Source: Chlamydiota bacterium
GTDB taxonomy: Bacteria > Auribacterota > JACPWU01
DNA length: 6,558 nt
Assembly (NCBI GenBank): GCA_016196885.1
Contig: JACPWU010000040.1
Coordinates: 1 to 6,558, forward strand
Reading direction: 5' to 3'
Shown: in pieces, positions 2,338-6,558 of the stretch
How the letters are laid out: each line of letters starts with the position of its first letter
How positions within the stretch are numbered: position 1 is the stretch's first letter
The notes under the pieces: model-generated
What the model was told of the DNA's origin: nothing
The model's input: only the letters and a program-made list of their open reading frames with translations
Databases searched by the model: none
Position numbers and translations under genes: made by a program

Positions 2338-3423
2338 GTGAAAAACTTCAAAGGGGGTTTTTTTCTTTTTTATTATTTTTGGTTGCTGATTTTCCTCTTT
2401 ATTTCCCTCCATGATGCCTACCCGATTTCCTTTCGTCTTTATGATGAAGGGGCCAAGGCCCAAGGCCAAGCAGGCGCCTTTACGGCTCAAGCGGATGATG
2501 CCTCTGCGCTTTATTATAATCCAGCCGCGATCACGCAATTGAAGGGGGATCAGGTTTTGTCGGGGACGGAATTTCTCCTTTTGAGTACGGATTATACGAG
2601 TACGAGTGGGGTCGAAGAATCGGACACCAATGATTGGGCGATTGTTCCTCATTTTTATGCGGTGCATCACGTGAATAAGAAGTGGGCGGTGGGCTTTGGG
2701 ACCTATTCTCTTTTTGGTTTGGCGACAGAGTATAGCGACACGGGTGTTTTTCGATATGTCGCGACCAGCTCGGAGTTGAGAACGATGACGATCAGTCCGG
2801 CGATCGCGTATCAAATCCTGCCGCAACTTTCCTTTTCAGCGGGGCCTACATTTATCGTGGGGACTTTGGATTTGAGGAGCAAAGTAGATTTTGGGGCGTT
2901 GGCGGGTTTATCCGGTGCTCTGGATGGGGACTCAAGATTAGCGGGGGATGGAGAGGGGTTTGGATTTCAGGTCAGTTTGCTTTTCGAACCCCATCCACAG
3001 CATCGGTTGGGACTGATGTTCTTGAGCCCTGTGGATTTTGATGTGGATGGCAGTGCCACGGTGTCCAATATTCCCTCCTTTGTGGGGGTTGGTTCTACGG
3101 TGACGGGCGATTTTTCGAGTGAATTAGATTTACCGGCGGTTTTGAGATTTGGCTATGCCTTTTTTCCGACCCATCGCTGGAAAATTGAATTTGATCTGGA
3201 TGGGTCGAATTTTAGTACATTCGAGGATCTTCCCATCACCAGCACCAATCCTTTGGTGGGTTCCCAGAGCGTTCCCAAAAATTATCAAGATGGGTATGTC
3301 TTTGCCTTGGGGACGGAGTATGAATTGAATGAGGATTGGACGGTGCGTTTGGGGTATGGGTATATAAACCTGTCTCTCGCATTCTCTTCTCTGTCCTTGG
3401 GTAAAAACTCCCTCTGGGAATGA
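2338..3423 (+). CDS. FadL/OmpP1/TodX-family outer-membrane hydrophobic-compound transport protein, apparently C-terminally truncated
   Basis: A GTG start is preceded by AAGGGGGG. The N-terminus is a hydrophobic signal-like segment. The family signature AKAQGQAGAFTAQADDASALYYNPAAITQL is present, followed by beta-strand-like alternating pattern. The ORF ends ...WTVRLGYGYINLSLAFSSLSLGKNSLWE*, lacking the last strands and the C-terminal aromatic residue, and its final ~55 nt are repeat-derived. Confidence 0.8.
   Translation: MKNFKGGFFLFYYFWLLIFLFISLHDAYPISFRLYDEGAKAQGQAGAFTAQADDASALYYNPAAITQLKGDQVLSGTEFLLLSTDYTSTSGVEESDTNDWAIVPHFYAVHHVNKKWAVGFGTYSLFGLATEYSDTGVFRYVATSSELRTMTISPAIAYQILPQLSFSAGPTFIVGTLDLRSKVDFGALAGLSGALDGDSRLAGDGEGFGFQVSLLFEPHPQHRLGLMFLSPVDFDVDGSATVSNIPSFVGVGSTVTGDFSSELDLPAVLRFGYAFFPTHRWKIEFDLDGSNFSTFEDLPITSTNPLVGSQSVPKNYQDGYVFALGTEYELNEDWTVRLGYGYINLSLAFSSLSLGKNSLWE
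3369..3403 (+). repeat. fragment of the C-element tail embedded in the 3' end of the FadL-like ORF
   Basis: There is a 15-nt exact match TCTCTGTCCTTGGGT (3389-3403 = 296-310). The upstream flank is also similar (GTCTC..CATTCTCT versus GTCTC..CATTTTCTA). Confidence 0.55.
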
Positions 3424-4342: not shown

Positions 4343-4384
4343 AATTATTTATGATATAAATTATTCTTGTTGTAAAGTATAATA

Positions 4385-4687
4385 CCTCGCATGGCCTCGG
4401 TCGTGCAACCTTCCCTCCAAAGCGGACTCGGACGCTCTCGCAGTGGAAATTTGATGAGAGATGTGGGTTAACCCGAATAGGTGAGATTTTGATTCAACCC
4501 ATATTTTGCAATAGACGCGAGAACTCAAGAGCAAGAGCTTGAGCCAGACAGGCCTTTGCAGTCCCTGTGGGATTGGCCTGAAGAAAACGTAGGCATACTG
4601 TTCACCAGTATGTCGAGGCTTTCTGAAGGTCAAGATGGCCAAGATGTTGCGTCGAATTCCGCGGCCTATTGCAAATTCTGGGTTCAA
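4385..4687 (+). repeat. C-element copy 2: inverted module A (4385-4459) + structured M/B domain (4493-4687); candidate ncRNA in the tRNA-Thr leader
   Basis: 4493-4645 is identical to 5344-5496 apart from 2 substitutions. The long-range complementary arms CAACCCATATTTTGCAATAGACGCG (4495-4519) and CGCGGCCTATTGCAAATTCTGGGTT (4660-4684) close a ~190-nt domain. That domain contains hairpins CTCAAG..CTTGAG, CAGGCC..GGCCTG (inner TCCC-TGT-GGGA) and CATACTG-TTCAC-CAGTATG. Confidence 0.75.
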
Positions 4688-4706: not shown

Positions 4707-4778
4707 GCTGGCGTAGCTCAACGGTAGAGCACCTGATTTGTAATCAGGCGGTTGCGGGTTCAAATCCCATCGCCAGCT
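4707..4778 (+). tRNA. tRNA-Thr (anticodon UGU), no encoded CCA
   Basis: Manual cloverleaf: acceptor GCTGGCG/CGCCAGC, D arm GCTC-AACGGTA-GAGC, anticodon arm CCTGA-TTTGTAA-TCAGG, T arm GCGGG-TTCAAAT-CCCAT, discriminator T. The T arm has one C-A mismatch and one G-T pair. Confidence 0.9.
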
Positions 4779-4993
4779 AAAATGTCCATGTTTGATGGTT
4801 GCAAAGGAAGTTCAAGGAACTTCTTTTGAGGGCATCAAGAAGGATTTGAACAGGAGGCCCGACCTAATATTAGCCAATCTGCCGGTGGCAGATTGGCTAG
4901 TCCTTGAGAGGGCCGGGAGGCTACCGGAAGACGAGGCCTCGAGGCCGAGTCTGGAGGAGCCAAATCCCATCGCCAGCTAAAATGTCCATGTTT
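4761..4993 (+). mobile_element. T-loop-associated mini-element 1: ~167-nt insert bounded by 33-bp direct repeats of the tRNA-Thr(UGU) 3' part
   Basis: CAAATCCCATCGCCAGCTAAAATGTCCATGTTT occurs at 4761-4793 and again at 4961-4993, exactly 200 bp apart. The repeat starts at T-loop C56. A conserved 109-nt core (4852-4960) contains a perfect 13-bp hairpin, 4871-4883 paired with 4887-4899. Confidence 0.6.
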
Positions 4994-5016: not shown

Positions 5017-5126
5017 AATTTCAATGGCCCTTTTGGGGGGCATCGTGTGCAATGAAAGCTCCACCCGCCTCCCTTATTTTGTAGTCGCCCCATTTATGGG
5101 GCTGCCCGATGAATCGGGCGACTACA
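5017..5126. repeat. REP-like element copy 3 (core 5080-5126, inverted) with conserved upstream flank
   Basis: The core is the exact reverse complement of 57-103 and 2113-2159. The flank 5017-5079 is in the same orientation as 2052-2112. Confidence 0.8.
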
Positions 5127-5343: not shown

Positions 5344-5562
5344 TTCAACCCATATTTTGCAATAGACGCGAGAACTCAAGAGCAAGAGCTTGAGCCAGAC
5401 AGGCCTTTGCAGTCCCTGTGGGATTGGCCTGAAGAAAACGTAGACATACTGTTTACCAGTATGTCGAGGCTTTCTGAAGGTCAAGATGGCCAAGATCTCA
5501 AGCTGTTATAGTCCCTGTGGGATGCGTCGAATTCCGCGGCCTGTTGCAAATTCTGGGTTCAA
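5344..5562 (+). repeat. C-element copy 3 (M/B domain only, with 26-nt internal insertion)
   Basis: It matches 4493-4687. CTCAAGCTGTTATAGTCCCTGTGGGA (5497-5522) replaces the GT at 4646-4647. The insertion repeats AGTCCCTGTGGGA from 5411-5423. Confidence 0.75.
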
Positions 5563-5691: not shown

Positions 5692-5773
5692 GGGCAGGTA
5701 CCAAAGTGGCCAACTGGGCCAGACTGTAAATCTGGTGGCTATGCCTTCGAAGGTTCGAATCCTTCCCTGCCCA
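5692..5773 (+). tRNA. tRNA-Tyr (anticodon GUA), long variable arm, no encoded CCA
   Basis: Acceptor GGGCAGG/CCTGCCC, anticodon arm CCAGA-CTGTAAA-TCTGG, T arm GAAGG-TTCGAAT-CCTTC. The layout parallels E. coli tRNA-Tyr. Confidence 0.93.
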
Positions 5774-5777
5774 AAAA

Positions 5778-5874
5778 GCAGGGTGTAGGGGTTAGGGTGT
5801 AGGGTATAGGGAAATAATGATTTTAATTAAGAACATTATTCCCTACACCCTAACCCCTACACCCTATTCCCTAC
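5778..5874. repeat. G-tract heptad palindrome 1 (long inverted repeat in the tRNA-Tyr/tRNA-Gly spacer)
   Basis: The left arm AGGGTGTAGGGGTTAGGGTGTAGGG (5780-5804) is perfectly complementary to 5841-5865. AATAATG (5813-5819) pairs with CATTATT (5834-5840). The loop is AT-rich and contains TTAATTAA. Confidence 0.85.
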
Positions 5875-5881
5875 TTTTATT

Positions 5882-5952
5882 GCGGGAGTAGCTCAATGGT
5901 AGAGTCCCAGCCTTCCAAGCTGGTCACGCGGGTTCGATTCCCGTCTCCCGCT
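5882..5952 (+). tRNA. tRNA-Gly (anticodon UCC), no encoded CCA
   Basis: Acceptor GCGGGAG/CTCCCGC, anticodon arm CCAGC-CTTCCAA-GCTGG, T arm GCGGG-TTCGATT-CCCGT. Confidence 0.93.
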
Positions 5953-5973
5953 CAAGGCAGAGCTTATATAAAA

Positions 5974-6080
5974 GCAGGGTGTAGGGGTTAGGGTGTAGGG
6001 TATGGGGAAATAATGAAAATAATGATTTTAATTAAGAACATTATTCCCTGCACCCTAACCCCTACACCCTATACCCTGCA
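5974..6080. repeat. G-tract heptad palindrome 2 (tRNA-Gly/tRNA-Thr spacer)
   Basis: The same 25-nt left arm (5976-6000) pairs with 6046-6070 with a single mismatch. A 9-nt tandem duplication (AAAATAATG) is present relative to copy 1. Confidence 0.85.
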
Positions 6081-6086
6081 TTTATA

Positions 6087-6159
6087 GCCGAGATAGCTCA
6101 GCTGGCAGAGCACGTCCTTGGTAAGGACGAGGTCACGGGTTCGATTCCCGTTCTCGGCT
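6087..6159 (+). tRNA. tRNA-Thr (anticodon GGU), no encoded CCA
   Basis: Acceptor GCCGAGA/TCTCGGC, D arm GCTC-AGCTGGCA-GAGC, anticodon arm CGTCC-TTGGTAA-GGACG, T arm ACGGG-TTCGATT-CCCGT. Confidence 0.93.
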
Positions 6160-6368
6160 CGTGATGAAAAGCTTAAAGGAATTAGTAAATTTAAGTCGGG
6201 TTCAGGTCTATAAGGTTTATGCAAGGGAATCGAATAGGAGGCCCGACTTATATTAGCAAATCATGCAGTGCATGATTTGCAATTCCTTAAGAGGGCCGGG
6301 TGGCCGACCGGAAGACGAGGCCTCAAGGCCGAGTCTGTAGGCGCCGATTCCCGTTCTCGGCTCGTGAT
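6142..6368 (+). mobile_element. T-loop-associated mini-element 2: ~179-nt insert bounded by 24-bp direct repeats of the tRNA-Thr(GGU) 3' part
   Basis: CGATTCCCGTTCTCGGCTCGTGAT occurs at 6142-6165 and again at 6345-6368. The repeat again starts at T-loop C56. The 109-nt core (6236-6344) is homologous to 4852-4960, with an 11-bp hairpin 6256-6266 paired with 6270-6280. Confidence 0.6.
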
Positions 6369-6418
6369 CAAATGCAGTGTTAAGCACTATTAACTGGTTT
6401 TAATGGGAGAAAAATTTC

Positions 6419-6558
6419 ATGGCCAAAGAGAAATTTGACAGAAAGAAGCCACACGTCAACATTGGAACGATCGGGCACGTAGATCATGGAAAAACGACCT
6501 TAACGAGCGCCATCACAAAAGTCCTATCGAAGAAGGGACTCGCACAGGCGAAAAGCTA
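6419..6558 (+). CDS. tuf: Elongation factor Tu, N-terminal fragment (continues beyond the window)
   Basis: It translates to [46 protein letters not shown] with the G1 motif GHVDHGKT. An RBS GGGAGA lies 8 nt upstream. Its position after a Thr-Tyr-Gly-Thr tRNA set matches the classical tufB context. Confidence 0.97.

Follow-up and report, generated by a model that had tools for sequence, protein, structure and literature searches.

The window analysed here comprises 6,558 nucleotides from an uncultured Chlamydiota bacterium whose genome abounds in other small repeats, and the right third of the window is a classical bacterial tRNA-tuf cluster. This contains genes for tRNA-Tyr (5692-5773) and tRNA-Gly (5882-5953), an intact tRNA-Thr(GGU) gene (6087-6160, plus strand; ARAGORN, and Rfam tRNA at 70.9 bits) that is nearly identical to its orthologue in relatives, and the start of tuf, encoding EF-Tu (6419-6558, plus strand; assigned by translation and homologues). 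The cluster also includes another intact threonine tRNA gene, tRNA-Thr(UGU), at 4707-4778 on the plus strand (ARAGORN, Rfam). Each of the two tRNA-Thr genes is followed by a short insert; the insert behind tRNA-Thr(GGU), which is now part of the leader of the downstream tuf gene, is referred to as E2, and the sister insert behind tRNA-Thr(UGU), its host gene, as E1.

The window was compared with contig JACOUD010000013.1 (13.7 kb) of the metagenome-assembled genome (MAG) GCA_016178005.1, whose proteins are labelled Chlamydiae/Chlamydiota bacterium by NCBI. The two sequences are the same except for 238 nt that are absent at window position 3365. The absent segment falls inside a gene for a FadL/Toluene_X-like outer-membrane protein, so that the open reading frame at 2338-3423 is artificially truncated in the window. 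Inspection of the tuf gene after E2 revealed that 4 nt (ATGA) are missing relative to three relatives (window 6556-6558; 13.7-kb contig 12657-12662), which shifts the frame past codon 46 and leaves the remaining ∼346 codons open and conserved in another frame; either the MAG consensus is in error here or this copy of tuf was inactivated very recently. At the opposite end of the window, a gene for a PemK/MazF-family toxin occupies 349-678 on the minus strand, and no antitoxin open reading frame of at least 40 amino acids was found on the same strand directly upstream of it (679-865).

The earlier note on this DNA, made from the sequence alone, had described a 24-bp direct repeat behind tRNA-Thr(GGU) that starts at the third base of the T-loop, and an equal boundary in two tRNAs of unlike sequence. 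Both claims were borne out by a repeat finder, BLAST self-comparison and the Rfam tRNA alignment. At E2, 6142-6165 recurs exactly at 6345-6368 (24 nt), and the match extends to 6172 and 6375 at 94% identity (31 nt, two mismatches), giving an attL-like left repeat at 6142-6172 and an attR-like right repeat at 6345-6375, both on the plus strand. At E1, the left repeat at 4761-4793 is identical to the right repeat at 4961-4993 over all 33 nt (100%; plus strand). BLAST E-values within the 13.7-kb contig were 6e-7 for the E2 repeat and 3e-12 for the E1 repeat, values at which the repeats are not due to chance.

Alignment to the Rfam tRNA family placed the start of both repeats at C56 (GGGTT/CGATT and GGGTT/CAAAT, the slash marking the boundary), within T-loops that read GGG-UUCGAUU-CCC and GGG-UUCAAAU-CCC. 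From this base, each left repeat covers tRNA positions 56-73, comprising the 3′ strand of the T-stem, the 3′ strand of the acceptor stem and the discriminator, and then continues into the trailer for 15 nt in E1 and for 5 exact or 12 near-exact nt in E2. Each right repeat has the same extent and consists of a displaced 3′ part of the tRNA from C56 followed by trailer. Each insert is therefore flanked by a copy of the last 18 bases of its own tRNA, at two different tRNA-Thr genes, and the cognate fragments lie in direct orientation at 6345-6363 for tRNA-Thr(GGU) and at 4961-4978 for tRNA-Thr(UGU). The T-stem of tRNA-Thr(UGU) contains a C50-A64 mismatch (GCGGG/CCCAT, window 4754-4770); the same A is present in the displaced E1 fragment, so the element is not the source of the mismatch.

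The interval between the repeats is 167-179 nt long and gene-less. It consists of a variable left part (E1, 4794-4841; E2, 6173-6225, plus strand) and a conserved core (E1, 4842-4960; E2, 6226-6344, plus strand) that adjoins the right repeat, and the similarity of E1 to E2 fades leftward from there. Sensitive BLAST aligned the two cores over 119 nt at 81% identity, and covariance model R1 scored the E2 core at 147 bits. The sequence AGGAGGCCCGAC begins at 6236 in E2 and at 4852 in E1, where AGGAGG also starts, and the distance from it to the right repeat is 109 nt in both cores, with one offsetting indel each, as the earlier note had stated; the homology reaches ∼10 nt further left. In the left parts (58 and 70 nt), no significant similarity of E1 to E2 was detected by global alignment (shuffle p ∼0.055). 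The architecture that the earlier note regarded as the same at both loci is thus shared in layout, length and core but not in the sequence of the left 58-70 nt. The left part of E1 forms an AT-rich hairpin of its own followed by TTTT in the full-length fold, a weak terminator-like feature that a terminator scan did not report; in E2, 6172-6200 is an inverted copy of the core segments bordering the central hairpin. The full-length folds of the two inserts accordingly differ in their left parts. Terminal inverted repeats were not found, the ends reading GATGGTTG.../...GGAGGAGC and GAAAAGC.../...TAGGCGC.

No open reading frame conserved between E1 and E2 was found, and a coding element was rejected on the grounds that the frame open in E1 contains stops in E2 and is shifted by indels. 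No Rfam 15 match at E ≤ 1 overlapped 4779-4993 or 6161-6375, and no promoter-like site was found in front of the core. Several further candidates were also rejected. A decayed tandem tRNA copy does not fit a core that is unlike tRNA positions 1-55, nor the fact that the cores are homologous and the tRNAs are not. A retroviral-type primer-binding site is contradicted by the genomic trailer within the repeat and by the lack of a CCA complement, and a T-loop intron by the fact that the tRNA gene is already complete in the first copy. No Rfam matches were obtained for known ribozymes, for group II domains, or for omega and bridge RNAs.

Folding revealed a common arrangement in both cores, with a stability far above that of shuffled sequences (z = -5.6 and -3.5). 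A GGCCC/GGGCC helix encloses a long perfect hairpin and is followed by an imperfect rod that ends in a GGCC-NNNN-GGCC hairpin; the UCCC of the copied T-arm takes part in the outer pairs of this second rod. Folding is almost as good on the minus strand. The central hairpin of E2, GCAAATCATGC-AGT-GCATGATTTGC (6256-6280, plus strand; also recovered as a self-inverted BLAST match), has 11 perfect pairs, and that of E1 (4869-4901) has 15 pairs, 13 of which are Watson-Crick pairs in an unbroken run. The small GC-rich stem of E2, AGAC-GA-GGCC-TCAA-GGCC-GA-GTCT (6313-6336, plus strand; supported by folds and pair counts), has its counterpart at 4929-4952 in E1.

Within the core, the central hairpin changes fastest (∼67% identity compared with ∼88% for the rest) and is still paired in both copies. 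On the two-sequence alignment, 4 of the 38 pairs have changed on both sides, and all four lie in this hairpin; the helices outside it never vary between E1 and E2 and are consequently uninformative. Every sequence statement of the earlier note is upheld, apart from the correction on architecture; this includes the high identity around the central hairpin, the hairpin arms that differ on both sides while staying paired, and the restriction of the small-hairpin difference to its loop (TCGA in E1, TCAA in E2). Its term “covarying” for this hairpin rests on two sequences and one helix. The paired changes are compatible with selection for an RNA or DNA hairpin, and also with a symmetric protein-binding site or with templated self-correction of the DNA palindrome; correction of this (quasipalindrome) type can likewise produce symmetric changes in a perfect palindrome when no RNA is under selection.

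The E2 site (thrT-tuf) was compared with that of relatives, traced through the closest EF-Tu sequences. Three distinct relatives, with EF-Tu proteins 90-92% identical, carry the same Tyr-Gly-Thr(GGU)-tuf order, and their Thr(GGU)-tuf spacers measure 69-95 nt and contain nothing resembling the element. The corresponding spacer in the window is 258 nt long, and subtraction of one repeat unit (203 nt) leaves 55 nt. The vacant spacers in all three relatives indicate that E2 is an insertion in this lineage, three losses being the less parsimonious alternative. The trailers of the relatives differ among themselves and from that of the window, and the trailer bases contained in the repeats are for this reason lineage-specific. 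A comparison of the E1 site was attempted in a close relative, which proved to be the same strain with its contig broken upstream of the tRNA. Overall, site-specific insertion into the tRNA T-loop is supported by the anatomy and the empty sites; the earlier note's view of an insertion at a defined tRNA position, as opposed to a random duplication, agrees with the own-tRNA 3′ parts, the shared T-loop start and the empty thrT-tuf site.

Other repeats surround the inserts. Both tRNA-Tyr and tRNA-Gly are directly followed by a G-rich/C-rich inverted repeat of ∼100 nt (5774-5872 and 5970-6077) that forms a very long hairpin; the two repeats are 89% alike, the spacers at these positions are unrelated in relatives, and the repeats account for all spurious microRNA-type Rfam matches. 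Taken with E1 and E2, they place a lineage-specific structured insert behind four of the four tRNA genes here. A MITE-like repeat of ∼195 nt, with terminal inverted repeats of ∼22 nt (TTCAACCCATATTTTGCAATAG/CTATTGCAAATTCTGGGTTCAA), occurs at 4493-4687, just upstream of tRNA-Thr(UGU), and at 5344-5562, upstream of tRNA-Tyr; the copies are 99% identical, and the second has an extra segment of ∼25 nt (5497-5522). A break within this repeat in a same-strain Logan assembly suggests that it is multi-copy. A REP-like unit of 48 nt, composed of two adjacent small hairpins (GTAGTCGCCCGATTCATCGGGC/GCCCCATAAATGGGGCGACTAC), is present at 57-104, 2112-2159 and 5079-5126, with one copy inverted, and a partial copy is located further upstream in the 13.7-kb contig (1949-1976). 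Finally, a mosaic repeat comprises an inverted copy of 4382-4460 (at 148-222) and a direct copy of 4608-4653, inside the MITE-like element (at 232-278). The mosaic repeat (148-278) and the core of the tRNA-associated inserts have the 9-mer GGAAGACGA and a CGAGGCC motif in common, which is probably chance.

The earlier note had proposed that the two copies belong to a recombining family, a view that it would regard as refuted if additional members were lacking. None was found beyond these two, which lie within 1.6 kb of each other in 13.7 kb of sequence, in searches of genome, metagenome, viral, phage, plasmid and protein collections and with a covariance model; the large collections were searched by exact pattern or BLAST, and distant parents could have been missed. 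Among species-representative genomes (one genome per species, the source MAG itself not among them), the pattern GGAAGACGAGGCCNNNNGGCCGAG gave two GC-rich matches, in Nocardia and in a Caulobacteraceae MAG, with no similarity beyond the pattern. In JGI metagenomes, CCGGAAGACGAGGCCNNNNGGCCGAGTC gave no match, and GAGGGCCGGGN{5,9}CCGGAAGACGAGG gave two, on GC-rich contigs that contain neither a tRNA gene nor any further part of the element. Four patterns run against IMG/VR viral contigs returned no match or chance matches, and the pattern matches in GC-rich sequence are likewise taken to be chance. BLASTN in distant mode found no match in phage and plasmid collections. A concatenated six-frame translation of both cores, aimed at open reading frames spuriously called over other copies, found nothing at E ≤ 10 among 5.8 billion proteins. 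The scan with a covariance model of the cores that the earlier note had recommended (model R1, 26 loci, ∼118 kb including the tRNA-tuf regions of relatives) recovered only the two training copies, and the search for recombinase genes that it had also recommended found no integrase or recombinase among the called genes of the 13.7-kb contig; Cas1, transposase and reverse-transcriptase genes were likewise absent from this contig. In the collections searched, the two copies have no close counterpart and any family is not widespread; a family, functional covariation and mobility are not established.

The arrangement can be explained by a model to which we give an even chance: E2 and E1 would be cargo-less, att-flanked derivatives of an element integrating into tRNA T-loops, at a sublocation used by tyrosine integrases. 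The model starts from the observed anatomy, the homology of the two cores and the empty orthologous site in relatives; from these we infer the type of recombinase, the function of the direct repeats as working att sites, the role of the core as an arm and any mobility today. Integration would have split the tRNA gene at about position 55/56. The element's own copy of positions 56-73 would have regenerated the gene and would now form the left repeat (attL), with the original 3′ part displaced downstream as the right repeat (attR). Sequence between the arms of the attachment site would since have been lost, or was never present. The ∼60-70 nt beside the intact tRNA would be equivalent to the P′ arm and the 109-119-nt conserved module beside the displaced fragment to the P arm, the arms and repeat together amounting to ∼200 bp, a size close to that of a minimal attP of the lambda type. 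The palindrome and GC-rich stem of the conserved module may represent the part needed by the recombinase or by accessory proteins. Encoding nothing, the elements would move only by way of an integrase acting in trans, and may now be fixed. E2 would be transcribed within the thrT-tuf leader and would not terminate it. Selection could plausibly account for its small size, since a full island in the tRNA-tuf leader would uncouple tuf from its promoter; such bias in tDNA usage is discussed in a Klebsiella preprint (bioRxiv 10.1101/2020.11.02.365908).

The T-loop is one of three known crossover sublocations, and integrase subfamilies keep their sublocation while changing their tRNA target (bioRxiv 10.1101/2020.11.02.365908). 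Related T-loop elements would therefore be expected to show a C56 boundary in two tRNAs and to carry, in each case, the 3′ part of the host tRNA itself. The att-flanked model is further favored by the intact tRNA and same-orientation 3′ fragment at both loci, by repeats of unequal length (33 versus 24-31 nt), as expected of att identity blocks, by the insert-free thrT-tuf spacer of three relatives, by the absence of a conserved open reading frame and of an Rfam family, and by core homology that reaches the right repeat and fades leftward. Elements that retain attL and attR and have lost their integration genes are, moreover, already defined as CIMEs (PMC5704250, PMC3146451). Against it stand the lack of an integrase in the 13.7-kb contig and of a full-length parent or third copy in the collections. 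The repeats also contain 5-15 nt of fast-evolving, lineage-specific trailer, and an attP acquired horizontally is not expected to agree with this, so that an origin within the lineage, gene conversion or a duplication mechanism is required. A 200-bp circle is as small as excision and integration can physically accommodate, and arm-type sites are not typically perfect palindromes. That two elements decayed independently to one layout is unlikely, but a single miniature ancestor would have needed to acquire a new tRNA target without an integrase of its own.

E1 and E2 might also be live miniature non-autonomous elements, each with little beyond one structured module of 110-120 nt, that insert at T-loop position 55/56 and duplicate the tRNA 3′ end and trailer, either through an attP-only minicircle and an integrase in trans or through an undescribed long-duplication mechanism; we consider this rather unlikely. 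A related explanation is a target-site-duplicating insertion, in which the enzyme inserting a small structured non-autonomous element would nick the top strand at C56 of the T-loop and the bottom strand at a point 24-33 nt further downstream, and gap repair would duplicate the tRNA end with its trailer, an outcome like the duplications of casposons or CRISPR repeats by Cas1-type enzymes or the variable duplications of target-primed reverse transcription. Repeats that copy local sequence down to the non-conserved trailer (15 nt in E1, 5-12 nt in E2) are consistent with such an event, which would account for the match to trailers that differ in relatives without a pre-matched attP, as are the C56 start common to two tRNAs of unlike sequence and the failure to find an att-bearing parent in the collections searched. 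The unequal repeat lengths (33 versus 24/31 nt), the lack of terminal inverted repeats and the lack in the contig of a gene for any of the enzymes concerned (Cas1, transposase or reverse transcriptase) argue the other way. Moreover, we know of no bacterial system that makes 24-33-bp duplications at tRNA T-loops, and the available data contain two copies; this explanation appears quite improbable.

It is also conceivable, though unlikely, that the core is a selected structured RNA derived from the tRNA operon transcript, with the copied 3′ part of the tRNA as a working piece. The UCCC of the copied part and a GGG of the core would then form a T-stem-like helix, leaving the acceptor-strand tail single-stranded, and the RNA could act in processing, in stability or in regulation of the thrT-tuf leader. 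Conservation of the core at 81% beside a left part with no significant similarity, folds that beat shuffles (z = -5.6 and -3.5), the same four helices in both copies and the four double-sided changes in the central hairpin are consistent with this proposal. In both minimum free energy folds, GGGA/GGGU of the core is paired to T-loop/T-stem bases from the right repeat, and expression of tuf requires transcription through the leader that contains E2. However, these are two sequences in which all helices but one are invariant and hence uninformative, the minus strand folds almost as well, and neither an Rfam match nor a promoter-like site before the core was found. At E1, the terminator-like hairpin sits between the tRNA and the core; the trailer bases of the repeat do not fit tRNA mimicry, no conserved partner exists for the acceptor 3′ strand, and the element is absent from the same site in relatives. 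An assembly artefact or chance repeat, such as a mis-join at a repeated k-mer in a bin of short-read metagenome data, might be suspected from the MAG source, from the repeat-rich region in which the same-strain Logan assembly breaks inside one repeat, and from the tuf 4-nt deletion, which may be an error. This is very unlikely given two independent loci of equal layout, each with its own, different tRNA sequence; in addition, a mis-join would leave one shared copy of a repeat, not two copies enclosing an unbroken insert of 167-179 nt, and repeats with E-values of 3e-12 and 6e-7 are far beyond chance. The readings are not fully exclusive, and a relic in the tRNA-tuf leader may well have gained an effect at the RNA level.

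If the att-flanked model is true, E1 and E2 would be among the smallest att-flanked elements described, each little more than an attachment site that was left in tRNA genes or moves between them, and would show how far an integrative element can be reduced with the host tRNA intact and, for E2, the tRNA-tuf unit unbroken. A core that is a selected RNA, or a true target-site duplication, would suggest a new tRNA-linked mechanism, which the evidence does not require. Fragments of tRNA and their companions of this kind are easily mistaken for pseudo-tRNAs or novel RNAs, which is relevant to annotation (PMC9897764).

Among known systems, islands and prophages integrated in tRNA genes by tyrosine integrases at the T-loop share several features with E1 and E2, namely a regenerated intact tRNA at one end and a displaced direct 3′ fragment at the other, an identity block running from the T-loop past the 3′ end, an orthologous site that is empty in relatives, and the use of one sublocation in different tRNA genes by related elements. 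Islander maps islands by an intact tRNA gene, a displaced 3′ fragment and a sublocation identity block, and found a 3′ tDNA fragment in 3760 of 3919 islands and a T-stem-region att site in 1836 (PMC4383910). By these measures, the present loci show an intact tRNA with a cognate same-orientation fragment, a block from a canonical sublocation to the 3′ end and, for E2, an empty site; no integrase gene was found in the interval or among the genes of the 13.7-kb contig. The differences are that the interval is 167-179 nt where islands measure kilobases, that neither an integrase nor any other gene is present, and that identity extends into the lineage-specific trailer.

MITEs resemble E1 and E2 in being small, non-coding, structured and non-autonomous, and further MITE-like and REP-like repeats occur in this region, but E1 and E2 lack terminal inverted repeats, are flanked by 24-33-nt repeats rather than by a 2-10-bp target duplication, hold a strict position in the tRNA T-loop and were found in two copies in the 13.7-kb contig. 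Casposons and CRISPR repeats, which depend on Cas1 integrases, duplicate a local target, over tens of bp in the case of CRISPR; casposons insert at the 3′ regions of tRNA genes with duplications of about 14-15 bp. Casposons are comparable in combining insertion at a tRNA gene 3′ end with a local duplication, and E1 and E2 differ from them in having no terminal inverted repeats, no cas1 and duplications of unequal length.

To our knowledge, the CIMEs described to date are kilobase-sized and recognizably derived from a known parent. No ICE, IME or prophage parent could be identified for E1 and E2, a homologue of the core being absent from the genome, metagenome, viral, phage and plasmid collections searched by exact pattern or BLAST. 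CIMEs are decayed ICEs or IMEs that keep attL and attR (PMC5704250), and E1 and E2 are like them in their att-like flanking repeats (100% and 94-100% identical), in the absence of integration or transfer genes, and in that, if mobile at all, they would need a trans-acting integrase or accretion with an incoming element; they differ in being near the size of a bare attP and in their strongly structured conserved module of 110-120 nt. [quoted passage not shown] Elements integrated in tDNA and flanked by att sites are known; what sets these two loci apart is their extreme reduction, with nothing between the ends.
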